A stretch of 64,000 bases of DNA from an uncultured Bacilli bacterium (GTDB lineage: Bacteria > Bacillota_I > Bacilli_A > RF39 > UBA660): the NCBI GenBank assembly GCA_910583685.1, contig CAJTXY010000001.1:4755-68754 (forward strand), in the 5' to 3' direction. Shown piece by piece: positions 7,917 to 23,311 of the stretch (position 1 is its first letter; each line of letters opens with the position of its first letter). A model generated the notes under the pieces. That model did not search any database. It was not told where the DNA came from and saw only the letters and a list, made by a program, of their open reading frames with translations. A program made the position numbers and the translations under genes.

Positions 7917-9143
7917 TTAATTGTCAAAAAAATGTCCAAACACTTTATTGATAATATGTTCATTTGAAATTTCTTGTTTTTTTTCTTTTAACAATAAATC
8001 AGCATCACTTTCTGTAAACATACTCTTATGTTTTCCACGCAAACGCAATTTATCATCATAATACTTTAATACGCCTAAAACACTAGAATACTTATTATGT
8101 CTTACTCCAATTGTCGAGATGTTACAAACTTTTGCACTTCTTTCTAAAATATCTTCTACTGCATATTGAAATCCCGCGAGTTCGCTAAGACCTCCTGTTA
8201 TAATTATATAACGGATTTCTCTATTTGTTAAGGCCTTTAACTCTTTTTTTACAAGTTTTAGGATTTCATAAACACGTGATTCTACTACTCTTGATAGTTC
8301 GGTTTGTTCTATTTCTTTTTTTTCATCATCCATTGTCAATTCGTAAACATCATTGCTGTCTGCGTATCGCATTACTGCTGTTGCAAATTCTTCCTTCAGT
8401 TTTTTTGCTGTATTTTCTTCTATTTTGTAGACATATGCAATATCTTTATCTACAAAGCAGCTTCCTACTGGAACTTTTGTACTTTTTATCATAATTCCCT
8501 TATTAAAAACAGATACCGTACTTATTTCTTTTCCAATATTTACGATCGCCCCTACTTCACTATCGATACGCTCACTTCTTACTTCGAAATAGTCTCCAGT
8601 TGTATGAAAGGCAACATCTACTGCTTCTAGACCTGCTAATTTTACAACTTCTAATAATCGATATAATGGTTCCTTGGGTACTGTTGTAATTACTGCTTTC
8701 ATTTCTAAGGTGTCTCCGCTTAAGCCTTTTGGATCCTTTACCATTTCTTCTCCCACAGTAAAATGAATTGGCATTGCTGTGATTAACTCTTGATCTTCTT
8801 CAATTTTTCCTAGCAAGGCATCTTTTAGCACACGGTTTACATCTTCCCCTGTTACTTTTTTTTCTGCAAGCTCTACCTTTCCAGTGACAATGGTAATTGT
8901 TAAATCTTCTTCTGGCACACACACAATTGCTTTTTTCAAAGTCGCACCCAACATCTCTTCTGTTTCTAAGATGCATTTTTTCAGACTAGCAACTGCATCT
9001 TTGGTGTTTACAATTTGCCTTTTTTTGATTCCTGATGATGGATGTGATGAGGCAGCTAAGATGTGAAATTTCTTGTTCAGTTTATCTGCAACAACAATTT
9101 TTATACTATCTGAGCCCAAATCAATTCCAGTATATATTGTCCT
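7917..9143 (-). CDS. ftsA: Cell division protein FtsA
   Basis: IYTGIDLGSDSIKIVVAD... is an actin-like ATPase. The start is set at the ATG preceded by GGAAGGAG. Confidence 0.9.
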   Translation of the reverse strand, partial: RTIYTGIDLGSDSIKIVVADKLNKKFHILAASSHPSSGIKKRQIVNTKDAVASLKKCILETEEMLGATLKKAIVCVPEEDLTITIVTGKVELAEKKVTGEDVNRVLKDALLGKIEEDQELITAMPIHFTVGEEMVKDPKGLSGDTLEMKAVITTVPKEPLYRLLEVVKLAGLEAVDVAFHTTGDYFEVRSERIDSEVGAIVNIGKEISTVSVFNKGIMIKSTKVPVGSCFVDKDIAYVYKIEENTAKKLKEEFATAVMRYADSNDVYELTMDDEKKEIEQTELSRVVESRVYEILKLVKKELKALTNREIRYIIITGGLSELAGFQYAVEDILERSAKVCNISTIGVRHNKYSSVLGVLKYYDDKLRLRGKHKSMFTESDADLLLKEKKQEISNEHIINKVFGHFFDN

Positions 9144-9215
9144 CATCTCATCTTCTCCTTCCCTACTATCATAATTCATTATACTATAACTTTTTTACTT
9201 TTCAAAGTTTTTTGA

Positions 9216-10541
9216 TTAATTTAGTTGATAAACGTCAAAATATAGGACCTTATCGACCCTTTTTCCGTTTTTTATTATGTATTTTAAGACCTCTTTGTCA
9301 GTTTGAGTTGAATAGTTTAATTCTTCTTTATTGATCAAAAATAATGTGCTTTTTTTCTTTTGAATTGCTTTTATCATTTTTTTAGTTCCGTCTTTTCCCC
9401 AATTCCCCCTATTGATTAAATCTAGTTTTTCAATTCTACGATGATTACTTAATTTAAAAATATAAGATGTACTAGATAAAATTATAATGTCCTCTTCCAA
9501 ATGATTGTCACTATATTCTTTTAGTGTTTCTGCATTATGGTATTCCATAGGATTTAAATAACGGTATTCATAATTTCTAATATGATTAGGGTAGACTCCT
9601 TTCGCATTTAAGGTTACCAGCATATTTCCTATTGGAAACAAGATGATCAGCCATAAGAAAAATTTTTCTAAGTGGTAATTAAACAAAAAATCACTATGTG
9701 CTATTATTGCCGTTAGTATTATAAATAATCCCAATAAAAAGTGTAATAAATCGAAGAGTGGAAAACATATAAAATAAAAGGCCACTGCGTAAATCCACTC
9801 TGTTTCATATTTTTGTTTTCTAAAATAAAATAGGAAGGCAATCCAAATTACAATTATAGAAATAGGCCTCCATATTGCTACTGATTCTCCATTTTTGGAA
9901 AACTCAAACATTCCTAAAAAACATTGATCTATGAAATCATTGAAATTTCCTGCTAATAAAAGATATGTAAAAATAAAGAACGTGGGAATTGCTACTCCTA
10001 AACATCTTTTCTTCAATCTTTCTTTATCATTCTTTACAAGATAGCATCCGCATAATAGGATCAAAAAACCAATCGATTGTTTTGTAAATAAAATGAGGCC
10101 TAACAGGAGGCCAATTTCTAGGTCTTTGGCCTTCCTTTTTTCTGCATAAATTAAAGCTAAAACGATGCAACAACAGAGCGTATTGTAAGTTGGCAGTCCA
10201 TTGACTATTGGTAATAATATAAGTAAAAAAATAAGAATTACCGATTTTTCTTTTGTTAACTTTTCTAATAAATAACAAATTACCACCATCAGCAGTGCTT
10301 GCTCAATATGAAACATTAAAATGCCCTTATAAAAGAAAAGTCCTATTGAAAATAGGAATGAAAATACAGGTGGTACAATCATATTAAAGTCTTGGTAAGG
10401 AACGAGTCCACTTGCAATATTATAGGAAAAGCCATAACTCCACGTTTCGTCTGCTGATACTTTTCTTAAAAACAAGTAAGAAATTAAAAAGGAAAAAAAG
10501 AAAAAGATATATTTGGTTTTACTTAAAATTTTGTCTCTCAT
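9216..10541 (-). CDS. Polytopic (about 10-12 TM) membrane protein with a roughly 110-aa C-terminal soluble domain. It is embedded in the dcw operon between divIB and ftsA. Function unknown; possibly a GT-C-like glycosyltransferase or O-antigen-ligase-like protein.
   Basis: Hydrophobic segments span the first ~330 aa. It is tightly packed (4-nt gap to divIB, 37-nt gap to ftsA) and co-oriented with the dcw genes. Confidence 0.45.
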   Translation of the reverse strand: MRDKILSKTKYIFFFFSFLISYLFLRKVSADETWSYGFSYNIASGLVPYQDFNMIVPPVFSFLFSIGLFFYKGILMFHIEQALLMVVICYLLEKLTKEKSVILIFLLILLPIVNGLPTYNTLCCCIVLALIYAEKRKAKDLEIGLLLGLILFTKQSIGFLILLCGCYLVKNDKERLKKRCLGVAIPTFFIFTYLLLAGNFNDFIDQCFLGMFEFSKNGESVAIWRPISIIVIWIAFLFYFRKQKYETEWIYAVAFYFICFPLFDLLHFLLGLFIILTAIIAHSDFLFNYHLEKFFLWLIILFPIGNMLVTLNAKGVYPNHIRNYEYRYLNPMEYHNAETLKEYSDNHLEEDIIILSSTSYIFKLSNHRRIEKLDLINRGNWGKDGTKKMIKAIQKKKSTLFLINKEELNYSTQTDKEVLKYIIKNGKRVDKVLYFDVYQLN

Positions 10542-10544
10542 TTG

Positions 10545-11225
10545 TTACTCCATAATCTTAAAATGATTTCCAGAATCTAGATAAAGGATCCCTTTTTTTC
10601 CTTCCAGCTGAGTTAGAACATCATTATAGTAATTTATCATATCAAATTTAGTTAATGTTAAATAGACACTGTTTCCGTCATCCATATATAATAAAAAGCG
10701 GTCTTTATCGTGTTCATTTGGTTGATACTGAACTTCCGAGACTTTTCCTAAGATGTCCTTATTAATTTTGGCCATTTTTTGAACGAATTTTTTATATTTT
10801 GTATTTGGTACATAATTCATTAAAGTCGGAATTCTAGTATTTTTATTTAATTCTATTTCCTTTTCATCATCTAGTACTACTTTATTATTTTCTTTTTTGA
10901 TAAATAATGGTTGATGTTCTTCTATTTCGATAGTTAAGATATGATAGAAGGAACGCTTTATCTTTATTTTTTTTACTAACGGATTTTTTGATAATTTTTT
11001 TGTAATTGATTTCTTTGTTGTCAAATAAAAGCTAGGGTAATCAAGCAGTTCTGCCTGCACCATTACTTCATCATCTGTTAGATAATTATTTCCTGTTATT
11101 ATAAGATTTTTAATTTTTGTATTGAGATATAAATAACCAGCAAAAAAAACCATTCCTAATAATATGATTATTAGAAGTAAGCGAAATACTCTTAGTTTTT
11201 TCTTTTTTACTATTTTTTTTGCCAC
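10545..11225 (-). CDS. divIB: Cell division protein DivIB/FtsQ (N-terminal TM plus POTRA-like domain)
   Basis: A short basic cytoplasmic N-terminus, one TM, and an extracellular domain. Conserved dcw position between murB and ftsA. Confidence 0.7.
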   Translation of the reverse strand: MAKKIVKKKKLRVFRLLLIIILLGMVFFAGYLYLNTKIKNLIITGNNYLTDDEVMVQAELLDYPSFYLTTKKSITKKLSKNPLVKKIKIKRSFYHILTIEIEEHQPLFIKKENNKVVLDDEKEIELNKNTRIPTLMNYVPNTKYKKFVQKMAKINKDILGKVSEVQYQPNEHDKDRFLLYMDDGNSVYLTLTKFDMINYYNDVLTQLEGKKGILYLDSGNHFKIME

Positions 11226-12143: not shown

Positions 12144-13223
12144 CTACTCTCCAATTACCTTCTTGATTTCTTGATAAACTTTCGTTGCGGAATCGCTAAC
12201 TCCTAAACTTTTGGTGCTTAACTTCATACTTTTATATAAACCTGTATCGTTTAAAACTTCATCGATCATAGGGATTAATGTATCTTTTGAAAAATTCTTC
12301 TCCTCTAATATTTTAGCGGCATTTATTTTTTCTAATTCTTGGGCATTTTTCATTTGATGGTTTTCTGTTACATAAGGAGATGGTACTAAGATGGAAGGAA
12401 GTCCAATTGCTGTAATTTCTGCAATGGTTGATGCTCCTGCACGTGAAACTAATAAATCTGTCTTTTTTAAGAGTTCTATTAAATTATCTATATAAGGCAG
12501 GATGGCAACATTTGATGGTACCTTAATGTTTTCGTATTCTTTATAATAATTTTTACCTGTAATTAGCACTACTTGATAAGGTTTATTTGAAAAAGCGGGA
12601 ATTAACTCCTTTAGCTTTTCTGTCATCGTTGTACTTCCTAGTGATCCCATTACAATTACTACTAATTTACGAGACTCATCTAAACCAAATTTTCTTTTAT
12701 CAATTGCTTTGGTATCTAAAATTTGTTCACTTCTTGGATTTCCTGTATAGACTGCTTTATTCCCCTCAAACTTCGTAATGGTATCAGGAAGCGATACACA
12801 AACTCGATCTACATATTTAGAGATATAGCGATTGGAAACTCCTGGTGTAGAATTTTGTTCGTGGATTAGCGTTTTATACTTTAATTTATGAGCGGCAATA
12901 ATGACAGGAGCACTAATATAGCCTCCTACTCCGACTACAATATCTGGATGAAACTTTTCTATTTCTTCTTTCGCCTTTTTGATTGCTTTTTTAAAAGTAA
13001 AATACACTGAGATATTTTTGATCAGATTTTTTCTATTAATCCCTTTCATTTCAATTCCAACGTATGGAATTTTTAATTTGGGAACAATATCTGCTTCCAT
13101 TCTATCTGTTGTTCCAATATATAAAATTTCACTACCTGGTTCTTGTTCTTTTATTTTTTCTAATATGGCAAGAGCAGGATAGATATGGCCTCCTGTTCCG
13201 CCAGCTGTTATTACAATACGCAA
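12144..13223 (-). CDS. murG: UDP-GlcNAc:undecaprenyl-PP-MurNAc-pentapeptide GlcNAc transferase
   Basis: MRIVITAGGTGGHIYPALAI is a canonical MurG N-terminus. Confidence 0.9.
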   Translation of the reverse strand: MRIVITAGGTGGHIYPALAILEKIKEQEPGSEILYIGTTDRMEADIVPKLKIPYVGIEMKGINRKNLIKNISVYFTFKKAIKKAKEEIEKFHPDIVVGVGGYISAPVIIAAHKLKYKTLIHEQNSTPGVSNRYISKYVDRVCVSLPDTITKFEGNKAVYTGNPRSEQILDTKAIDKRKFGLDESRKLVVIVMGSLGSTTMTEKLKELIPAFSNKPYQVVLITGKNYYKEYENIKVPSNVAILPYIDNLIELLKKTDLLVSRAGASTIAEITAIGLPSILVPSPYVTENHQMKNAQELEKINAAKILEEKNFSKDTLIPMIDEVLNDTGLYKSMKLSTKSLGVSDSATKVYQEIKKVIGE

Positions 13224-13289: not shown

Positions 13290-13889
13290 CTATTCTCCAG
13301 TTTCATAGTTGGTATGACCTTCTTGTATTGCTTTTACTTTTATTCTTCCGTGAAAATGGGTTCCCATCACCTCATTTTGAGCAGTTTCTGAAATCCATAA
13401 TCTTAGTGTATATGTTGTTTTTTCATTTGGTGCTAATATGCTTGTGTCAAACACACCCTCATTGTCCTCTAATGTACCAATCAGTGGTGTTGCTCCATTT
13501 TTACTAAAAGAATAGCGAATTGACTGCCAAGGGAGCTTTTTGTCTAGACAATTGTCTGTGGTGTATTTATCTTCATCATTTTCTAGTACGATTTGATAAT
13601 TTGCTTTTAGGGTTCCTGTGTTTTCTACAGAAAATACATAAGGTGCATTAGCAAGACCATCCGCATCTGTTACTGGTACTGCATTTTCTAAAGTAATTCC
13701 ATTTGATGCAGACTCATCTAAAGTTAATACTAAGGTACCTGTTGAGATTTTGTTTTCCTTCGTTCCGTCTTTTGAAAAGGCAAAAACTGCATATGAGACA
13801 AATATAAACATCAAAATAGCACAAATTATAAAAAATCCATTTCTAATTATTTTTTTCTTACTTTCATCCATTTTATACACTCCCATCAT
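13290..13889 (-). CDS. TasA/camelysin-family secreted protein with a SipW-cognate-type signal peptide
   Basis: Signal anchor followed by YAVFAFSKDGTKENKISTGTLVLTLDESASNGITLENAVPVTD. This aligns with the TasA/CalY region AYFSDKEVSNNTFAAGTLDL...ENSASVNLSNLKPGD. Confidence 0.65.
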   Translation of the reverse strand: MMGVYKMDESKKKIIRNGFFIICAILMFIFVSYAVFAFSKDGTKENKISTGTLVLTLDESASNGITLENAVPVTDADGLANAPYVFSVENTGTLKANYQIVLENDEDKYTTDNCLDKKLPWQSIRYSFSKNGATPLIGTLEDNEGVFDTSILAPNEKTTYTLRLWISETAQNEVMGTHFHGRIKVKAIQEGHTNYETGE

Positions 13890-13943
13890 CTATATAAATT
13901 ATATCGTTATTTTAAAAAGATGTAAAGAAAAAAACAGCGAATC

Positions 13944-14555
13944 TTATTGTGAGATTGCTGTTGCGATGTCAACTCCATTTTCCACTACTTGAATTTTCCC
14001 GTGATAATGCATATCACTATCTAATGGCAAAGTGTTGTTGGTTGTCCAAAGACGAACTGTATAAGAGATACTCGCTTTTCCTTTTAATTTACGCGATAAA
14101 ACCGTTCCATCTTTTAAATCAGATAACATAAAGATTTTGTTTTCCTCTTTTTCTTTATGGATTGCCCCTTTGATAATACTTTGTGGAATCTGGTATTCAC
14201 CACATTCATCTTCTACTATTTTCTCATTGTCTTTTACTAGTTTAATACTATAGTTTACTGGTGTTTCTAAATTATTTTTTATCGTAAAAGTATAAGCATG
14301 AGAGCTTAGGCCAACAGAGTCTGATATGGATGTTACCTTTGTAAGAGTTATGCTATCTCCTGCTTTTTCGTGAAAAGTTACTTCCAGTGATTTTGAATTA
14401 TTAACCTGATTTCTCGTATCTTTAAATTTATAATATATATAATGAGTTGCTGTTAAGGCAAAGGTTAAAATGAAAGCGATTATTAGTCCACTTTTTATCA
14501 TTTGTTTTCTATAGTATGTTAACAAAATACCCCACTCCTGTCTAAATATAATCAT
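13944..14555 (-). CDS. TasA/camelysin-family paralogue, more divergent; start uncertain
   Basis: Shares the C-terminal block with the 13290 gene (TYTLRLW...HFHG.I.V vs SYTVRLW...HYHGKIQV) and an N-terminal YYKFKDTRNQVNNS motif. GGAGTGGGG lies inside the first codons of the track ORF, so a later TTG/ATG start is likely. Confidence 0.55.
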   Translation of the reverse strand: MIIFRQEWGILLTYYRKQMIKSGLIIAFILTFALTATHYIYYKFKDTRNQVNNSKSLEVTFHEKAGDSITLTKVTSISDSVGLSSHAYTFTIKNNLETPVNYSIKLVKDNEKIVEDECGEYQIPQSIIKGAIHKEKEENKIFMLSDLKDGTVLSRKLKGKASISYTVRLWTTNNTLPLDSDMHYHGKIQVVENGVDIATAISQ

Positions 14556-14626
14556 ATATCTAGTTTTAGGCAGAAGTCAACGAAAAAGAGTTTATTTTAC
14601 AGCAATATTGTAAAAGAAAAAAACGA

Positions 14627-15409
14627 TTATAGCTCTTTTGCTGCAATCGTTCTTGTTACTACATCTTTTACATTTGCTTCATTAAATGGTTTAGCAAGCA
14701 AATCTATTATTGCATATTGTTTTACCATATCAATGACTTCTTGTGTATAAGCCCCTGTAATTACTGAAACTGGGATTTTAGGAAATAGATTATGGCTTTT
14801 AAAATATTCTAATACTCCAAAACCATTTACATTTGGCATATAAATATCAAGCAACATACAACTAATTTTTCCGTTTATATCATTTTCAATTAGCTTTAAT
14901 GCTTCTGCTCCATCTTTGGCTGTTATTACATCATAGTCGTTATTAAATATTTTCTCAACAAAGGAGATTACTACTGAGGAATCATCTACTACTAAAATTT
15001 GTTTTTCTTTTGGTCCAATTACTTCAGGAGCAACAACGGGTGCTTGATCCTCTACTCCTAAATAAAGGCTTACCACTTTCATTACCCGAGAAACTTCAGC
15101 CATTAGAGAGTCAAAATTTGCATAAACGTAATTTGAATCATTCGCTTTACTTTTCATCTCATGATCATAGGCCATATCTCCTAGTCCCATAAACCCAAAA
15201 TATCTGGCATCACTTTTTAATGAATGTACAATTATGGCATAGTTTTGCATATCAGCAGATGCTTTATAGGCTTGTAATTGTCCTATTTTTTCTTTTAAAC
15301 CTGATAGGAAGTCAGGGAGTGTTGCATTATAAGTTTCCATATCTCCAAATAATTCTAGGCTTTTATTGACATCTGCCCCATTTGTGATTAAAAAATTTAC
15401 ATCTTTCAT
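14627..15409 (-). CDS. Phosphorelay protein with an N-terminal Hpt domain and a C-terminal receiver (REC) domain; no output domain
   Basis: Hpt-like helix with a conserved His (IIVHSLKSDARYFGFMGL). C-terminal REC: ILVVDDSSVVISF...D...LLDIYMP...K. Confidence 0.6.
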   Translation of the reverse strand: MKDVNFLITNGADVNKSLELFGDMETYNATLPDFLSGLKEKIGQLQAYKASADMQNYAIIVHSLKSDARYFGFMGLGDMAYDHEMKSKANDSNYVYANFDSLMAEVSRVMKVVSLYLGVEDQAPVVAPEVIGPKEKQILVVDDSSVVISFVEKIFNNDYDVITAKDGAEALKLIENDINGKISCMLLDIYMPNVNGFGVLEYFKSHNLFPKIPVSVITGAYTQEVIDMVKQYAIIDLLAKPFNEANVKDVVTRTIAAKEL

Positions 15410-15450
15410 TCTTACACCTCGCTACTTTCAAATTCATTATATCATAAAAA

Positions 15451-17262
15451 TTATGAGTTTAAATATTTTCTTATTACTTTTTCTAGTTCTACTTTATCAA
15501 TTGGTTTTGCTAAATAATCTTGAAAACCATCTTTCAAATATTTTTCTCTCATTCCAGAAATTGCGTTTGCTGTTAAAACAACGACAGGGGTTTCGAAACC
15601 TTCAATTCCTTTTAGTTTCTTTAAAGTCTCTACTCCACTCATCTTAGGCATCATATCGTCTAGTAGTATTAAATCATATTTTTCACCTGCTAGGACTTTG
15701 TCGATTGCCTCAAATCCACTTAAAGTTTGTGTAATAGCAAGGCCATACTTTCCAAGTAACATAGAAGCTACTTTTAAATTTAATTTATTGTCGTCTACTA
15801 GTAGAACCTTCTTACCAGAAACATTTAGTGGTATATCTATTTGTGTTTCGGTTGCAACTGCTTTTTCTGCAACGATCTTCTGATCAATAGCAACAGTAAA
15901 TTTAGAACCTTTTCCGTAGACACTTTGAGCAACAATTTTACCTTTCATTAATTCTACTAATCTTTTCGTAATGGCAAGACCCAACCCTGTTCCTTCAATA
16001 GTAATATTTTTTTCTAGATCTAATCGTTCGAATTTCATAAACAGTTTATCAATTTTATCTTGTTTAATACCAATGCCACTATCTTCAACGGCAATAATTA
16101 GTCTACAAGCTTTTCCGCTTTGAATCGTACTGATTTTAAAATCAATAAAACCTTCTTTGGTATATTTAGCGGCATTGGTTAAAAGATTTAAGATAATTTG
16201 TTTTAATCTGACATAATCTCCGTATAAAACCGCGGGGACACTTTCATCTAAATGTGTTCTAAATTCAATTGGCTTTTCCCCGATCCTAGCCTTGGTCAGT
16301 AGTACGAGTTCATCAAAGACTTTATGCAAATCATACTCTGTATTTACAATTTCTAACTTATTGGCCTCAATTTTGGAAATATCAAGGATTCCATTTACAA
16401 TTTCCAATAAGTTATCAGAAGCCATTAAAATATCTCTCGCTTTTTCTTTTGTACTATCTGGTAAATCCTCTTCCGATAAGCTTTGAGAAAATCCAACAAT
16501 AGCATTTAGTGGTGTTCTAATCTCGTGGGACATACTTGATAAAAAGTCGGTCTTAGCAGCATTAGCACGTTCTGCTTGATTACGAGCAAGTTCTAGTTCT
16601 GCAATCATCTTTAAATCAGGGTTTTCAATTGTAAAGTACATCAAAAATGTGGTAAATATTTGAACTGATTGAGTAAGTACTAATGTAGGTTTTATAATTT
16701 GAATAATTCCTGAAATTAAGAACAAAACGGCATATATTAAAACTGGTAAATACTTTTTTGTTAGCAATTCTTTGATATGTAGAAGCATACAAGCTATTGA
16801 AATTAATAGGAAGGAAATGGATACTATTTTTAGTAAATCGACACTCATTCCATAGGTGTAAGAATATAGGCTTTTAGTTGGTTCAAAGTAATACTGGATT
16901 GGTAATACTAAAAAACCTACTGAACATATGATGAAAATTAGAAAAACAATTAGGCTCAATTTTTTATGATACTTTTTGTTAAACGATATTACAATAGTAT
17001 AAACTAACAATAAGCTAATCCATAATAAAATATTCACTAAAAAGAGTCTAGAGGTTATAGCGTTAAGTAAGGGGATTTTCTCCATCACCATACATGTAAA
17101 TATTTGAGATATTTCTAAAACAACACCAGTTAGAGAGACGACAATTAAGCGTTGATAAATTCTATTTTCTAAAGTTTTAAGTCTTTTTTTTGAAAAAAAT
17201 ACAATCACCAAAAGGACAATATAAACTAGGCTAGTTAACGAAAAATATATATTATAATTCAC
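15451..17262 (-). CDS. Hybrid sensor histidine kinase (about 6 TM N-terminus, HisKA, HATPase_c, C-terminal REC)
   Basis: H-box MSHEIRTPLNAIVGFSQ; G-boxes DSGIGI/GTGLGLAI. C-terminal receiver: KKVLLVDDNKLN...LILLDDMMPKMSG...VVVLTANA. Confidence 0.8.
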   Translation of the reverse strand: MNYNIYFSLTSLVYIVLLVIVFFSKKRLKTLENRIYQRLIVVSLTGVVLEISQIFTCMVMEKIPLLNAITSRLFLVNILLWISLLLVYTIVISFNKKYHKKLSLIVFLIFIICSVGFLVLPIQYYFEPTKSLYSYTYGMSVDLLKIVSISFLLISIACMLLHIKELLTKKYLPVLIYAVLFLISGIIQIIKPTLVLTQSVQIFTTFLMYFTIENPDLKMIAELELARNQAERANAAKTDFLSSMSHEIRTPLNAIVGFSQSLSEEDLPDSTKEKARDILMASDNLLEIVNGILDISKIEANKLEIVNTEYDLHKVFDELVLLTKARIGEKPIEFRTHLDESVPAVLYGDYVRLKQIILNLLTNAAKYTKEGFIDFKISTIQSGKACRLIIAVEDSGIGIKQDKIDKLFMKFERLDLEKNITIEGTGLGLAITKRLVELMKGKIVAQSVYGKGSKFTVAIDQKIVAEKAVATETQIDIPLNVSGKKVLLVDDNKLNLKVASMLLGKYGLAITQTLSGFEAIDKVLAGEKYDLILLDDMMPKMSGVETLKKLKGIEGFETPVVVLTANAISGMREKYLKDGFQDYLAKPIDKVELEKVIRKYLNS

Positions 17263-17333
17263 AATATCACACTTCTTTATCTTTATATATTCAAATTATA
17301 CCACGCAAAAAAAAGTACTGCAACAAGTACTTT

Positions 17334-19208
17334 TTATCTCGACTTAGAAAAAGCTTTCGCTTGTTCCGTAATAATTCCTTTAGTAGCAACATAATCTCTT
17401 TGTAATGCCATTGTATCAATTTTTCCAACAGATGTAAGTGGCATAGAATCTTTGAAAACGATATCAACTGGGTAAGTATAATCGGGTAAATTTTCTTTAA
17501 TTAGTGAATATAATTCTTCTTTAATTGTTTCTTCCATCCCTTGATTACGATATTGTTCTTCTAAAACAGAAACAACAACAGGTGCATTTCCTTCTGTCAC
17601 ACTTGGTACTCCGATTGCAGAGCAACTTTGAACACAAGGGTATTTGCTTACTACATTTTCTAAAACAGATGGGAAAACTTTATAACCACTACGAATAATC
17701 ATACGTTTAATACGATCCTGATGATATACTTGTCCATCTTCTGCAACATAACCAATATCTTGCGAGTGAAGCCAAACTTTTCCATCTTTGTGAACTTTTA
17801 ACATATCGTCTGTTGCTTCTTGATTATTATAATAGCCTAGCATAACGGTTGGTCCAGTAATACATAATTCTCCTAATTCTCCATAACTTTTTTCCTCACC
17901 TGTTTCTGGGTCAAATGCAGAAACAGAATTTCGTGGAAGTGGTAACCCTACACTACCAATGCTATTAATAATATCACTGGAAACTGTTGCACAGGCAGCA
18001 CATTCTGTTAAACCATAACCTTTTTTTATAATACGACCATTATGCTTTAACATAAATCTGTCTAGTTCCAATTCTTTTTCTTTTTTCATAGCATCTCCAC
18101 CTACAATATAACTAACACCATATTCTAAATTGAGATTTTTCATAATTCTATTTTCCATCAAGGAATCAAAGTATGCAGGAACACCTAAACATATTTCTGG
18201 TTTTTCTTTGGCAATTAATTCTGGGAACTTTTCTTGATCCATTTTAGGAATTAGATTAGATACCCACCCTTTTGAAACTGCTGTATGAATTCCATTTACG
18301 GCACCATATGCAACAAATGGAACTAAAACATTTAAAAACTTACGATGTCTCTGTAAGTCAACGTGTACATAATCCAAACCATCAACCATAGCGTTCATAT
18401 TTTCGTTAGTTAGCATAACACCTTTTGGTGTTCCAGTTGTTCCACCAGTATGAACGATACAAGCAGGTTGATTAGCTTTAAACTCTGCATCTTCTACTTT
18501 CGAGATATCTCGTCCGGCTTTTATAAAATTATGCCAATTTATAAATGTATCATCATATTTTACAGATGGTATAGCACCCTTTTTTTGGTCTACATAATCT
18601 TTCAAGTTTTTTGCTTGCTTTAGGCCAAATGGAAGTGAATCATTTGGTGATAATACAACTACTTTTTCTATTTCAGTTTTTGGAATTGCATTCTTAACAA
18701 CATCATAACAAAGATTTAGCATTAGCATATATTTAGAATGCACTTCGTTTAAATAATCTGTCACTCCAATCTTTGTAGTTCTTGGGTCAATCATATTAGG
18801 AATTGCATTCATTTTGTTTAATGCATAAAATGAATAGATTAGTTCTGGACTATTAACAGACATAATCGTTACGATATCATTTTCTTTAACTCCTAGTTTA
18901 GAAAAAGCTTTTTGTGTTTCGTCAATTTTTTCAAAAAACTCTCTATAGGTGATATTTCTACCAAAATATTGTAAAACGATATCATTTAGATATGGCTGAT
19001 TTCTTTCTTTCATATATTGATAGGCATTAACTTTGGGTAATTCTGTTTCATACGATTCCTTTGGGAACCATCTTAAGTGTGGTTTGTCGATAGATGGCTT
19101 TCCTGTTAGTTTTTTACTTTCTTCGTGATTTACTACATATTTTTCTGAATCTTTCAATGTTGATTCATTTACTACTAATTCTTTCATTAGAACCTCCATA
19201 TTTTTCAA
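17334..19208 (-). CDS. AMP-dependent synthetase/ligase (acyl-CoA synthetase family)
   Basis: AMP-binding signature IVHTGGTTGTPKGVML, 624 aa. Confidence 0.8.
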   Translation of the reverse strand: MKNMEVLMKELVVNESTLKDSEKYVVNHEESKKLTGKPSIDKPHLRWFPKESYETELPKVNAYQYMKERNQPYLNDIVLQYFGRNITYREFFEKIDETQKAFSKLGVKENDIVTIMSVNSPELIYSFYALNKMNAIPNMIDPRTTKIGVTDYLNEVHSKYMLMLNLCYDVVKNAIPKTEIEKVVVLSPNDSLPFGLKQAKNLKDYVDQKKGAIPSVKYDDTFINWHNFIKAGRDISKVEDAEFKANQPACIVHTGGTTGTPKGVMLTNENMNAMVDGLDYVHVDLQRHRKFLNVLVPFVAYGAVNGIHTAVSKGWVSNLIPKMDQEKFPELIAKEKPEICLGVPAYFDSLMENRIMKNLNLEYGVSYIVGGDAMKKEKELELDRFMLKHNGRIIKKGYGLTECAACATVSSDIINSIGSVGLPLPRNSVSAFDPETGEEKSYGELGELCITGPTVMLGYYNNQEATDDMLKVHKDGKVWLHSQDIGYVAEDGQVYHQDRIKRMIIRSGYKVFPSVLENVVSKYPCVQSCSAIGVPSVTEGNAPVVVSVLEEQYRNQGMEETIKEELYSLIKENLPDYTYPVDIVFKDSMPLTSVGKIDTMALQRDYVATKGIITEQAKAFSKSR

Positions 19209-19538
19209 TTTATTTTTCCTATAAACTGCATCAGGAATTAATTATATTCTATACCAAAACGATAGGATAAGCAAATAAATTATGTAAAGCAAATAAGTAT
19301 AACATAAAGTTATATAGGCAATATAAGAAACAACACTTGATTTTCTTCGTTTTTTGGTACCTATATGAACACTTTATTTAATGAGTGAGAGAAATAAAAA
19401 ATGTAGAAAAAACTCAATATTATTTAGGAAAGAAATCGAGTATTTATTGATTTCTTTTCTTATATCAGAACATAGTATCCCTAATATTGACAAAAGTGTT
19501 GGTTTATAATTTAATAATTGCTAAAAAGGAGATACTTT

Positions 19539-20447
19539 ATGACTAATATTAATAAATCTATTGAAATTGCAAAGAATTTAATACTAACCGGCGAAGGCAA
19601 GGAAAAGTATATGCTATACCCTTATGCAACAGAAAATTTAGTTGGTCTATTTCATCAAATTGATGTATCTGGAAAAGACTGTCTTACTATTAATGGAAGT
19701 TTTGACCAAAGTCTAGATATGGCTTTGATGGGTGCTAAATCAGTTACAGCATTTGATATTAACCCATTATCTATTCCTTATGCTGAATTAAAAATGGCGC
19801 TTATTCTAACAGGCTACCGAAAAGAAATTTATTTTGGATTTTTAAATGGATACTATGATGTTTTAGAAAGTCTCGCCTTTCACCCAACAGTTTTTGAATA
19901 TATGAAGAAAAACATCTCTGAGTCTTCCCTAGTATTTTGGCAAGAAATGTTTCAAAACTTTGACAAGCGACAAATTTGTCAAAAACTTTTCTTTGATGGA
20001 TACCATTTTTCAGAGCAAAAAGATTTTGTAAATTATATGCAAGATGATAACTACACGAAATTACAAGGAATGTTACCCAATACCAATATCCAATTATTAG
20101 AATGTAATATTAGGGTATTACCAAATATGTTAAACAAAAGCTTCGACATTATACATTTTTCTAATATTATTGGATATCAAGATACAATGTATGAAGGAAA
20201 AAACAGAGAAGAAAAATTATATACTTACAAAGATTTGCTAGAAACTTATAGTCACTTTTTAAATAAAGACGGAAAAATTATTTCTTACATTTATGACCCT
20301 TTCAACAATCAAGGATGTGACGAGGTTCCAATTTTTGATAAAGACTTAAGAGATAAAATTTTTTCGGGAGACCAATATAGTTATATTTATTTTCCTGCAT
20401 ACTTTTCTGATGCAAAAGATGGATGTTTAATTTATACGAAAAAATAG
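19539..20447 (+). CDS. DUF3419 / BtaA-like SAM-binding protein
   Basis: DCLTINGSFDQSLDMALMGAKSVTAFDINPLSIPYAELKMALI matches the DUF3419 (BtaA-like) SAM-binding N-terminal block. The start is set at the ATG preceded by AAAGGAG rather than the track's TTG. Confidence 0.5.
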   Translation: MTNINKSIEIAKNLILTGEGKEKYMLYPYATENLVGLFHQIDVSGKDCLTINGSFDQSLDMALMGAKSVTAFDINPLSIPYAELKMALILTGYRKEIYFGFLNGYYDVLESLAFHPTVFEYMKKNISESSLVFWQEMFQNFDKRQICQKLFFDGYHFSEQKDFVNYMQDDNYTKLQGMLPNTNIQLLECNIRVLPNMLNKSFDIIHFSNIIGYQDTMYEGKNREEKLYTYKDLLETYSHFLNKDGKIISYIYDPFNNQGCDEVPIFDKDLRDKIFSGDQYSYIYFPAYFSDAKDGCLIYTKK

Positions 20448-20612
20448 AAATGGTAAAACTATCACTTCTATTTTCCTTATAATAATTGATTCGAAAAATT
20501 GTTCTTGAAATTCTGATAATGCTCTAATTTGTTCATCTGTATAATCTTTCTCACTAGGTGCCACTACTAACTTGTCATTATTATCATTTGTTCTATGAAT
20601 ATATGCAATCAC
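20427..20612 (-). CDS. Possible small protein (61 aa) whose start overlaps the Nudix stop
   Basis: 4-nt ATGA overlap with the upstream Nudix gene stop on the same strand. No homology recognised. It overlaps the 3' end of the convergent plus-strand gene. Confidence 0.25.
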   Translation of the reverse strand: MIAYIHRTNDNNDKLVVAPSEKDYTDEQIRALSEFQEQFFESIIIRKIEVIVLPFLFFRIN

Positions 20613-21055
20613 TTTTCATTTTCTATCTTCTTTAACTTTTCTATCACGTACCATAAAAGTGGTGAAGTATTTTCTCCTGTTAACTTGTCCATTTTAACCC
20701 ATACGGCGTCATCAGAATCGATACAGTCATCCCCACTTTTGATTCTAGACTCTTTTATTTCTACTTTATATAAAATGCCGATTCGTTGTAGGTCTTCTTG
20801 CGTAAATCTATTTATCTTCCACTTAACATTGACACTCGCCGTATCCCAAAGTTTTGCTTTTAACACCTCTGCCCCTAATTCTTCTTTACATTCTCTATAT
20901 AAAGCATCGATTGGATTTTCGTTATGTTCAATTCCACCACCTGGCAAATCATATTTTCCCTTGTCACCACCATACGCTTTTTTAATTAATGCTATTTTTT
21001 CTTCTTTTTCAATGATTGCATATGCACCAACTAATGTTTTTCTAACGATTCTCAT
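20609..21055 (-). CDS. NUDIX hydrolase
   Basis: Nudix box GGGIEHNENPIDALYRECKEELG. Confidence 0.8.
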   Translation of the reverse strand: MRIVRKTLVGAYAIIEKEEKIALIKKAYGGDKGKYDLPGGGIEHNENPIDALYRECKEELGAEVLKAKLWDTASVNVKWKINRFTQEDLQRIGILYKVEIKESRIKSGDDCIDSDDAVWVKMDKLTGENTSPLLWYVIEKLKKIENEK

Positions 21056-21963
21056 TTCTTCTCCTCCTCTGCTCCTTTAAAAATTTGTTTTATAATCTCT
21101 ACTCTTTTTTCATCAGGAATCCCAAAGCCACTTGCTTTTTTATGACCTCCACCCCCAAGGGTAGTTGCTAACTCCGCTAAATCTACATTATCCTTTTGTG
21201 TTCTAAGACTTACTCCTCCGCCAACATTTATCATTGCAATAAAATCAAGCTCTGGATGTGCATTTTGAAGCAGCATTCCAAGTTCACTGCGATAATTCTC
21301 TGCGAAAACAACACCGACTTTATAATTCTGATAAGTAAAAGTCAGCAATTGTTCATTTTTTCTTTCGAAGTATCGTTTGATTCTACTTTCCTCAATTTCC
21401 AAGATCTCTTCCTCTGTATTGGTGATTATAGGGACACCTTCATCATTTAAATTCTTAACAAAGTGATCAATATAGCCTAGATTCCCATATATTTCAAATA
21501 AGTCTCCTAATCTTTTGGCAGTAAAATCTTTCTTTGTAACCCAATGCCATAAATCAAGATTTTTTACACATTCTACATAATCATTTATTTTAGACGTGTT
21601 TAATTGTTCGTTGTTTGTTTTTAAATAATGATAAAACAAGGACGTTGCACATTCATTGATATCTAATGTAACAAATGGGTATTTAGAAGCATACTGCTGA
21701 CTAATATGATGGTCGAAGACACAAAATTTTTCTTTCCAGGATTGCTTTTCTATCCATTCATAAAGTTCTTCACTAAGAGATAAGTCTGTCACATAAATAT
21801 GTTCATAATTATCTAAATCTTCTTTAAGTAAAAGAGAAACTTTCTCTTCTACTTCTTCTATTTCTAATAAGTGAAAATCGACATCTCTTTTCAATAACTT
21901 TAATAAAATTACAGGACTTACCCCATCTACATCCTTTGCATGTGTTATGATCATATCTTTCAT
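21052..21963 (-). CDS. DHH/DHHA1 phosphoesterase (NrnA-like nanoRNase / pAp phosphatase family)
   Basis: Motifs DVDG, VTDLS, VFDHH and a C-terminal GGGGH (DHHA1). Confidence 0.7.
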   Translation of the reverse strand: MKDMIITHAKDVDGVSPVILLKLLKRDVDFHLLEIEEVEEKVSLLLKEDLDNYEHIYVTDLSLSEELYEWIEKQSWKEKFCVFDHHISQQYASKYPFVTLDINECATSLFYHYLKTNNEQLNTSKINDYVECVKNLDLWHWVTKKDFTAKRLGDLFEIYGNLGYIDHFVKNLNDEGVPIITNTEEEILEIEESRIKRYFERKNEQLLTFTYQNYKVGVVFAENYRSELGMLLQNAHPELDFIAMINVGGGVSLRTQKDNVDLAELATTLGGGGHKKASGFGIPDEKRVEIIKQIFKGAEEEKK

Positions 21964-22222: not shown

Positions 22223-23311
22223 TTACTTGCTTTCCCTTGAAATATTAAGGAGAATCCCCATACTGACCATACTAATTAACAAGCTACTTCCGCCATAACT
22301 TAAAAATGGTAAAGTTACACCTGTTACAGGAATTAGTCCAACGACAACCATTAAGTTCATAAGGGACTGAAAAATGATTTGAAACACCATACCAAATGCT
22401 AGGTATTTCGGAAATTCCTCTTTTGCATTTAATGCAATTTTAATACCACGATATAAAAGGAGAACAAAAAGTCCACATACGATTACTACTCCCATCACAC
22501 CAAACTCCTCTGAAATGATAGAAAAAATAAAATCTGTCTGTGGTTCAGGCAAATAGAAATGTTTCTGAATGGAATTCAAATAACCATTTCCTAAAAGACC
22601 ACCTGGTCCTATTGCATAAAGAGACTGAATAATTTGAAATCCTGTTCCTAGTGCGTCACTCCAAGGATCTACGAATGAAGTAATTCTATCCATTCTATAA
22701 GGTGCAATGATGATTAAAATAACAATACCGATAATGCCTATTGCTCCACATCCCATAAAAAACTTCATATTCACTCCTGCAATAAAAAGAAGAGAAACGA
22801 TGGAAACCACTAAAATTACGCCTGTTCCTAGGTCTGGTTGTAGCATAATGAGGCCAAAGAAGAAAAGTGTTACTCCAAGTATGGGAAAGACACCGTCTTT
22901 TAAACTTTTTAAAAACTTATTACTCTTTTCTAGATACTTGCTTGTAAAAATAATAAGGCCTAATTTCGCAAACTCACTTGGCTGAATTCCTAAGGAACCA
23001 ATTCCAAACCAGCTTCTACTACCATTACGAATGCTACCAATTCCCGGAATTAGAACTAAAACCAAAAGGATCAAACAAATTAGCAAAATTAGATTGGATT
23101 TTTCTTTGTAAATAGAATAATGAATTTTGGAAATAGACATCATAATAAAAATACCCACCGCCAAAAAGATCGCCTGATACTTAATATAATGAAAACTATC
23201 ATGAAATTTATATTCTGCCCAAATACTAGAGGCAGAGTAGATCATAATCAGACCAAATACTGCTAATGTAATTACGGTTATAAATAAGGTTTTATCCAGT
23301 CCTCTTTTCAT
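22223..23311 (-). CDS. ftsW: SEDS-family peptidoglycan glycosyltransferase (FtsW/RodA/SpoVE)
   Basis: Ten TM helices, QPSEFAKL motif, and a C-terminal GGSSL-like block. Confidence 0.85.
   Translation of the reverse strand: MKRGLDKTLFITVITLAVFGLIMIYSASSIWAEYKFHDSFHYIKYQAIFLAVGIFIMMSISKIHYSIYKEKSNLILLICLILLVLVLIPGIGSIRNGSRSWFGIGSLGIQPSEFAKLGLIIFTSKYLEKSNKFLKSLKDGVFPILGVTLFFFGLIMLQPDLGTGVILVVSIVSLLFIAGVNMKFFMGCGAIGIIGIVILIIIAPYRMDRITSFVDPWSDALGTGFQIIQSLYAIGPGGLLGNGYLNSIQKHFYLPEPQTDFIFSIISEEFGVMGVVIVCGLFVLLLYRGIKIALNAKEEFPKYLAFGMVFQIIFQSLMNLMVVVGLIPVTGVTLPFLSYGGSSLLISMVSMGILLNISRESK

Follow-up and report, generated by a model that had tools for sequence, protein, structure and literature searches.

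The described signalling systems that come functionally closest to the pair of genes considered here are of two kinds, the unorthodox-kinase systems (ArcB, BarA, TorS) and the relays in which a hybrid kinase cooperates with a free histidine phosphotransfer (Hpt) domain (HptB, LuxU, RcsD, Ypd1). In the first kind (ArcB-ArcA, BarA-UvrY, TorS-TorR, EvgS-EvgA) the Hpt domain is carried by the kinase itself and the sensor is periplasmic or of PAS type, while in the second (PA1611/SagS-HptB-HsbR of P. aeruginosa, LuxQ/LuxN-LuxU-LuxO of Vibrio, RcsC-RcsD-RcsB and Sln1-Ypd1-Ssk1 of yeast) it is free or forms part of RcsD, and the terminal regulator possesses an output (sigma-54 activator, PP2C/STAS or HTH). 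A four-step His-Asp-His-Asp route is also found in Firmicutes as the Bacillus sporulation phosphorelay (KinA-E, Spo0F, Spo0B, Spo0A), where non-hybrid kinases are used, phosphotransfer is performed by the HisKA-like dimer Spo0B and not by a monomeric Hpt bundle, and Spo0A bears a DNA-binding output. Receivers devoid of any output domain are represented by the single-domain regulators CheY, DivK, Spo0F, MrrA and EpsW, all of them free-standing and none with an N-terminal Hpt. Here, we analyse a locus within a 64,000-nucleotide stretch of DNA from an uncultured Bacilli bacterium of the RF39 lineage (contig CAJTXY010000001.1, positions 4,755 to 68,754; hereafter the window), where two neighbouring genes for a hybrid sensor histidine kinase and for an Hpt domain fused to a receiver (Hpt-REC protein) very probably encode a four-module phosphorelay.

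Relative to the ArcB, BarA, TorS and EvgS systems, the Hpt domain of this locus resides on the receiver polypeptide instead of the kinase, a DNA-binding domain is absent from the terminal receiver, sensing falls to a polytopic membrane domain devoid of loops and the host belongs to a Gram-positive gut Bacilli lineage, whereas the difference from the free-Hpt relays consists in covalent tethering of Hpt to an output-less receiver. This terminal receiver (REC2) shares with the single-domain regulators the lack of an output domain and the complete catalytic quintet but, unlike them, has an Hpt domain at its N-terminal side. The proposal taken as a whole, that a complete His-Asp-His-Asp relay is split here at an unusual gene boundary and that REC2 serves as a protein-binding single-domain regulator, is considered moderately probable. 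Both open reading frames (ORFs) were found on the minus strand at the positions assigned to them by a first-pass annotation of the window, and their features are as follows.

15451..17262, minus strand: hybrid sensor histidine kinase, 603 residues, comprising the H1 and D1 modules (Pfam HisKA, HATPase_c and Response_reg all above cut-offs)
16627..17262, minus strand: membrane-embedded N-terminal sensor region, residues 1-212, 6-7 hydrophobic segments with minimal loops (Kyte-Doolittle scan)
16363..16557, minus strand: HisKA dimerisation and phospho-acceptor domain, H-box SHEIRTPLN, H246 at 16525-16527 (Pfam; codon checked)
15880..16221, minus strand: HATPase_c catalytic domain with N box NLLTNAAKYT, G1 box DSGIGI and G2 box GTGLGL (Pfam)
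15472..15807, minus strand: REC1, the kinase-fused receiver, with D490 and D491, acceptor D535 at 15658-15660, T564 and K586 (Pfam; codons checked)
14627..15409, minus strand: Hpt-REC protein, 260 residues, comprising the H2 and D2 modules, without output domain (Pfam and homologue alignments)
15056..15382, minus strand: Hpt four-helix-bundle domain, residues 10-118, acceptor H62 at 15224-15226 in HSLKSDARYFGF
15005..15055, minus strand: flexible linker, residues 119-135, variable in sequence (predicted local distance difference test, pLDDT, < 50 at residues 123-132)
14642..15004, minus strand: REC2, the terminal receiver, with D142 and D143, acceptor D188 at 14846-14848, T218 and K240 (Pfam; codons checked)

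The kinase ORF begins with a GTG start codon, and its proposed hybrid nature is borne out by Pfam matches to HisKA (63.4 bits, residues 236-300), HATPase_c (89.4 bits, residues 348-461) and, at the C-terminus, Response_reg (REC1; 80.3 bits with a cut-off of 30.2, residues 486-597). Conservation was assessed over 54 full-length orthologues sharing 49-81% identity, among which the H-box with H246 is invariant, while the N, G1 and G2 boxes and the REC1 quintet of D490/D491, D535, T564 and K586 are conserved, meaning that the phospho-accepting histidine, the ATP-binding boxes and the fused receiver that define a hybrid kinase are all present. When compared with NCBIfam, the kinase core aligns along the TorS, BarA, LuxQ and ArcB models with scores far below their equivalog cut-offs, and the protein is therefore a generic hybrid kinase and no orthologue of any named one. 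Six segments of the N-terminal part are strongly hydrophobic and a seventh is less so, with hardly any loops in between, so the six transmembrane helices proposed earlier are approximately right, the true number being six or seven. No Pfam family matches residues 1-212, and this membrane region is the least conserved portion of the kinase (mean majority frequency of 0.43 versus 0.69-0.81 elsewhere).

For the second gene the first-pass annotation claimed an Hpt domain with a conserved histidine in the motif VHSLKSDARYFG, fused to a second receiver, and named two findings that would speak against it, namely the absence of the Hpt fold and a histidine not conserved in orthologues. The motif is present in the 260-residue protein, although Pfam Hpt (PF01627) scores only 22.1 bits (residues 33-85), which is below the gathering cut-off of 24.6. 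Orthologues and relatives with the same Hpt subtype surpass this cut-off (35.0 bits for P0146 and 28.7 bits for P0149, for instance), and a precomputed PF01627 match accompanies many of the homologues, which number more than 2400 in the database, the best 120 of them being full-length and 53-100% identical. Being compared with PDB sequences as a single query, the whole protein retrieved receiver matches only; a profile built from residues 1-122 of 22 orthologues retrieved CheA P1 domains first (E = 2.6e-4 and 1.4e-3) and LuxU as the third of the best three (E = 0.029), with H62 aligned in each case to the phospho-accepting histidine of these proteins. H62 is found in every one of 196 distinct orthologues (49-86% identity), and the same invariance is shown by K65, S66, D67, Y70 and G72 of the HS.KSD..Y.GF motif. 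With the N-terminal domain modelled separately from the receiver, both the monomeric four-helix-bundle fold and the phospho-histidine signature (H-x-x-K-G/S...G in the second long helix) were found, and the N-terminal domain of the protein is a canonical Hpt of the monomeric type.

The receiver part is matched by Response_reg with 64.9 bits (residues 138-251, cut-off 30.2), and within residues 136-256 the acceptor D188, the pair D142/D143 and K240 are retained in all 196 orthologues, while T218 is found in 194 of them; invariant as well is the non-catalytic KPFNE following strand beta5. In such a way REC1 and REC2 both exceed the PF00072 gathering threshold with the catalytic quintet complete. 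The best NCBIfam match of REC2 is a DivK-like family. In the full-length model (pLDDT 86.7) both domains are well folded, a disordered stretch links them and the chain ends about 4 residues beyond helix alpha5; though the linker varies in sequence it has a length of 18-20 residues in 164 of the 196 orthologues. Neither Pfam nor NCBIfam detects a DNA-binding or enzymatic output domain in either relay protein, in agreement with the earlier claim, and REC2 has no attached domain of the OmpR, NarL, NtrC or LytTR type by which a canonical terminal response regulator is recognized.

Two other assignments of the pair were considered and rejected. The Spo0-type sporulation relay is ruled out by the H2 module, a canonical monomeric-type Hpt and not a Spo0B-like dimer; the Spo0A and Spo0F models match the receiver part only and far below their cut-offs. 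A CheA/CheY system is likewise ruled out, given that the protein lacks CheA kinase and CheW domains and its neighbouring kinase is of the HisKA type, even though CheA P1 is the best sequence match of the Hpt domain.

With one genome scanned per species, relatives of the Hpt-REC protein were met in no fewer than 553 species-level genomes, and the best 80 of these are nearly all metagenome-assembled genomes labelled as uncultured gut "Bacilli", "Tenericutes" or "Firmicutes", the hosts being mouse, rabbit, chicken, human and ruminant. The window also matches contig CATLHO010000001.1 of the assembly GCA_949948905.1. The rarity stated earlier for Firmicutes agrees, as regards hybrid kinases, with a 2015 census that places them below 1% of Firmicutes two-component proteins (PMC4558063), but within this lineage the relay is common. 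The same census lists proteins combining a response regulator with HPt as a rare type, 312 proteins in 264 organisms (PMC4558063). Gene neighbourhoods were counted in the best 80 species-level loci (L001-L080), with ORFs clustered over 10 kb of flank on each side. A hybrid kinase lies directly upstream of Hpt-REC on the same strand at 57 of the 80 loci, 4 further loci being cut by a contig edge, and the median gap between the two genes is 33 bp versus 55 bp to the upstream and 85.5 bp to the downstream gene. In the window the two co-directional ORFs of the minus strand are 41 bp apart. All sites of a phosphorelay, H1, D1, H2 and D2, are present, intact and genetically linked. The genes downstream of Hpt-REC vary and are mostly of housekeeping type (Obg, YebC, RimM, TrmD, SpoU methylase). 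Two loci deserve separate mention. In L062 a 104-residue ORF consisting of a receiver only (9574-9888) is situated immediately upstream of Hpt-REC, and the hybrid kinase is found approximately 5.5 kb further upstream. In L082 (6601-8408), a contig from another sample, the Hpt-REC protein is identical to that of the window and the kinase is represented by two separate ORFs (386 and 195 residues), which reflects either a strain-specific frameshift or pseudogene, or an assembly error.

The linkage of modules is further illuminated by an alternative gene boundary. Searching the Hpt profile against 1.84 billion representative proteins gave 4700 matches with E ≤ 1e-3, 168 of them with E ≤ 1e-30, and architectures were judged among the best 150, the remainder being mostly fragments of either type. 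At least 40 representatives have the N-terminal Hpt followed by a receiver and are typically of about 250-290 residues; four forms of 400-440 residues (P0140, P0146, P0149, P0185) differ by a linker of about 180 residues and contain no output or recognisable extra domain. At least 35 other representatives, 660-1040 residues long, bear the Hpt at the C-terminus of kinases with the transmembrane-HisKA-HATPase-REC order. One of them, P0150 (L084), shares 34% identity with the window kinase along the full length, membrane part included, and the Hpt domains of the two systems are 45% identical; 10 bp later comes a gene for a lone receiver of 193 residues (39% identity with REC2), behind which Obg, SpoU, RimM and TrmD are situated as at many Hpt-REC loci. 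A receiver-only gene follows the fused kinase in L084-L086. The same relay exists in two interchangeable arrangements, with the Hpt either on the receiver or on the kinase. This constitutes Rosetta-stone-type evidence that the kinase with REC1, the Hpt and REC2 would form one pathway, qualified by the degenerate H-box of P0150 and by three fused loci considered below; it supports the chain of modules and leaves REC2 as its end point unproved. In P0150 (L084, 6001-8784) the H-box histidine is replaced by Cys and the REC1 threonine by Ile, while the Hpt histidine motif and the downstream receiver-only gene are kept, and the protein is possibly a pseudo-kinase in which the Hpt-to-receiver step remains in use.

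The order of phosphotransfer proposed here follows what has been established for hybrid kinases and for Hpt domains. The kinase with its purely membrane-embedded sensor would autophosphorylate on H246 (H1) and pass the phosphoryl group to D535 of its own fused receiver (D1), from which it would be taken by H62 of the Hpt domain encoded by the next gene (H2) and handed over to D188 of the tethered REC2 (D2) across a linker of about 19 residues. The disordered yet length-constrained linker is consistent with such tethered transfer. We infer REC2 to be the end point of the chain, with a protein-protein output and a signal received at the membrane: since the terminal receiver has no output domain, phosphorylated REC2 most likely binds and controls another protein in the manner of single-domain response regulators such as CheY, DivK, MrrA and EpsW. 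REC2 is the favoured acceptor of the Hpt because the tether is short and constrained in length, because REC2 is retained when the Hpt moves to the kinase and because no variant with an output domain was met, and for the same three reasons protein-protein signalling by the terminal receiver is the favoured output. Single-domain receivers are documented that act via phospho-dependent protein-protein contacts or as relay intermediates (PMC5964349, PMC12802240).

Several observations weigh against this scheme. The predicted TM-score of the full-length Hpt-REC model, 0.52, gives no confident inter-domain geometry and no support for docking of the Hpt on REC2. A receiver fused to a hybrid kinase is not in every case part of a relay, as was shown for MA4377 in vitro (bioRxiv 10.1101/2021.03.04.434021). 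At the loci of fused kinases L087, L088 and L091, which have sufficient flank, an adjacent receiver gene is absent (the flank of L090 is too short to judge), and therefore this Hpt subtype can serve unlinked receivers. Finally, the connection of the relay to lipids or the envelope, discussed below, is drawn solely from gene neighbourhood, and in the window a hairpin with U-run and a promoter-like box part the ligase gene from the kinase.

The loci with a fused kinase and no adjacent receiver lead directly to the principal rival, a sink or modulator function, according to which the real output of the system lies in an unlinked response regulator that bears a DNA-binding or enzymatic domain and is supplied with phosphate by the Hpt, whereas the tethered REC2 only drains or buffers phosphate or gates the Hpt, thereby shaping kinetics. 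Such a role, which the first-pass annotation had raised, is possible and clearly less probable than not; phosphate-sink receivers are a known design. It is favoured as well by the composition of REC2, which in most orthologues has Asn at position D+2 and Asp or Glu at T+2, a combination resembling that of fast-dephosphorylating CheY-like receivers. However, the surroundings of the locus contain no conserved second receiver gene, just 3 sporadic ORFs of this kind being encountered across the 80 loci and none in the 64-kb window when searched with a receiver profile built from the family. Besides, REC2 is conserved as strongly as the Hpt, and this conservation, including the invariant KPFNE after beta5, points to an interaction maintained beyond catalysis. 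The behaviour of REC2 when the Hpt moves to the kinase argues in the same direction, as in L084 it is kept as a separate gene. REC2 as a protein-binding regulator remains preferred. The features of the genetic environment of the relay in the window are given below.

17334..19208, minus strand: AMP-dependent acyl ligase, 624 residues, the most conserved kinase neighbour, by association only (Pfam AMP-binding, 205 bits)
17295..17335, minus strand: hairpin with U-run after the ligase gene (17335-17307), then a putative extended -10 box TGGTATAAT (17303-17295) upstream of the kinase (fold and sequence reading)
14617..14650, minus strand: hairpin with U-run overlapping the Hpt-REC stop codon, predicted as a possible terminator (RNA fold and sequence reading)
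13290..14555, minus strand: two paralogous small N-terminally anchored beta-rich proteins of 203 and 199 residues, the "TasA-like" genes of the first-pass annotation (context only)

The minimum free energy of the 56-nt stretch 17295-17350 holding the hairpin between ligase and kinase is -10.3 kcal/mol, the -10 box being a consensus match only, and that of the 61-nt stretch 14590-14650 is -12.4 kcal/mol, a value for the whole stretch including a second downstream hairpin. These flanking hairpins with U-runs and the promoter-like box suggest that the kinase and Hpt-REC genes would form a bicistronic unit of their own. The broader position of this unit is as follows. Besides the relay and the ligase, the block 13290-21963 contains genes for two small secreted proteins, for a member of the DHH family and for a Nudix protein, as well as a DUF3419-like gene; it lies between ftsW (22223-23311) and murG (12144-13223), interrupting the usual order of the dcw cluster, and Hpt-REC adjoins ftsW or murG/murB in other loci too (L025, L029, L054, L062 and L080). 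Inside the same cluster of the window, between divIB (10545-11225) and ftsA (7917-9179), the minus-strand gene 9216-10541 encodes a polytopic membrane protein of 441 residues without a Pfam match, which is conserved in the closest relatives L001 and L003.

The best lead that the neighbourhood offers for a target of REC2 would be membrane-lipid acyl metabolism or the cell envelope. An AMP-dependent acyl ligase is located directly upstream of the kinase for 34 of the 57 kinase copies, and a glycerolipid acyltransferase of the PF01553 family for 9 more, while both enzymes are present in L024, L066 and L079. The same ligase precedes the fused kinase in L091. The best solved relative of the ligase is a long-chain fatty-acid-CoA ligase (3g7s), and the protein itself is a generic enzyme of the ANL type. 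In L066 and L079 two hybrid kinases stand in tandem, in the order ligase, kinase, acyltransferase, kinase, Hpt-REC. The recurrence of ligase and acyltransferase hints at acyl lipids as a common theme, reminiscent of the bifunctional enzyme Aas, and together with the loop-less, poorly conserved and polytopic character of the sensor it suggests, as a neighbourhood inference only, that the kinase perceives a membrane or lipid cue. A more far-reaching version assumes the main conserved envelope-sensing pathway of the uncultured, reduced-genome gut Bacilli, with the kinase reading the state of membrane lipids (for example exogenous fatty acids, lysolipids or bile stress) and the phosphorylated receiver directly controlling, post-translationally and with no transcription factor, the lipid-acyl enzymes (the co-located acyl-AMP ligase or a PlsC-like acyltransferase) or cell-division and envelope proteins; this version is regarded as unlikely.

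Another kind of target was implied by the downstream genes, which the first-pass annotation described as TasA-like and placed next to the relay. The adjacency is as it was described, whereas the label has a sub-threshold Pfam match behind it. The two genes, 13944-14555 and 13290-13889, code for paralogues 24% identical to each other, each with a hydrophobic anchor at the N-terminus of a beta-rich body. With Pfam scanned at E up to 10, Peptidase_M73 (PF12389) matches only one of them, over the N-terminal 87 residues, with 14.0 bits (E 0.044, cut-off 22.5); at E ≤ 1 it is seen in 1 of 11 family members, it is also carried by one database homologue of 39% identity, and a profile of the 11-member family has no significant match among PDB sequences. 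As neither a Pfam score above threshold nor similarity to a solved TasA-family protein was obtained, these genes cannot be counted as verified members of the TasA/camelysin family, a remote relationship being possible. By the profile of the small family, 8 of 77 loci have one of its members no more than 2 genes downstream of Hpt-REC, and the distant lineages among these 8 (L028, L037, L040, L041 and L080) hold the domain in larger proteins. The association with the relay is thus recurrent in a minority of loci, and the link is weak; the acyl ligase or acyltransferase upstream of the kinase is met more often. Elsewhere in the window, the 621-residue product of the minus-strand gene 50631-52496 matches the family profile with E 1.5e-8, the domain therefore being found beyond the two relay neighbours.

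That the relay controls these secreted-protein genes as a matrix or fibre regulon is thus improbable to a high degree, even though in the window they directly follow the relay on its strand and the association recurs in distant lineages. About 90% of the loci lack the adjacency, neither relay protein has a DNA-binding domain, and the TasA/camelysin assignment is unverified. Moreover, each small gene is preceded by its own hairpin with U-run just upstream, with a strong -10/-35 match before the gene for the 199-residue protein and a weaker -10-like match before that for the 203-residue one. Least probable of all is branched or short-circuit wiring, with REC2 phosphorylated directly by H246 and with REC1 and the Hpt as a side branch or a reverse dephosphorylation route, because, notwithstanding the report on one archaeal hybrid kinase whose fused receiver stands outside a relay in vitro and the reverse phosphotransfer through Hpt established for ArcB and TorS, the four modules retain every catalytic residue across 54-196 orthologues and the Hpt is fused either to REC1 or to REC2 but never lost, which is consistent with H2 being an obligatory intermediate from D1 to D2.

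Taken together, the data provide good support for a real and widely conserved system, conventional in its mechanism and representing an uncharacterised family within a known kind of signalling system; our literature search for characterisation of Hpt-REC fusion proteins, or of this system in RF39-like Bacilli, found none. For a pair of proteins now labelled only as "response regulator" or left unnamed, residue-level annotation becomes available in at least 553 species-level genomes. The existence of two gene arrangements constitutes a natural experiment on the partitioning of phosphorelay modules between polypeptides. If the link to the lipid enzymes is functional, the relay would offer an entry point to membrane homeostasis in organisms not yet cultured, and the lineage of uncultured gut Bacilli in which it is found most probably uses a full four-step relay that ends in an output-less receiver.

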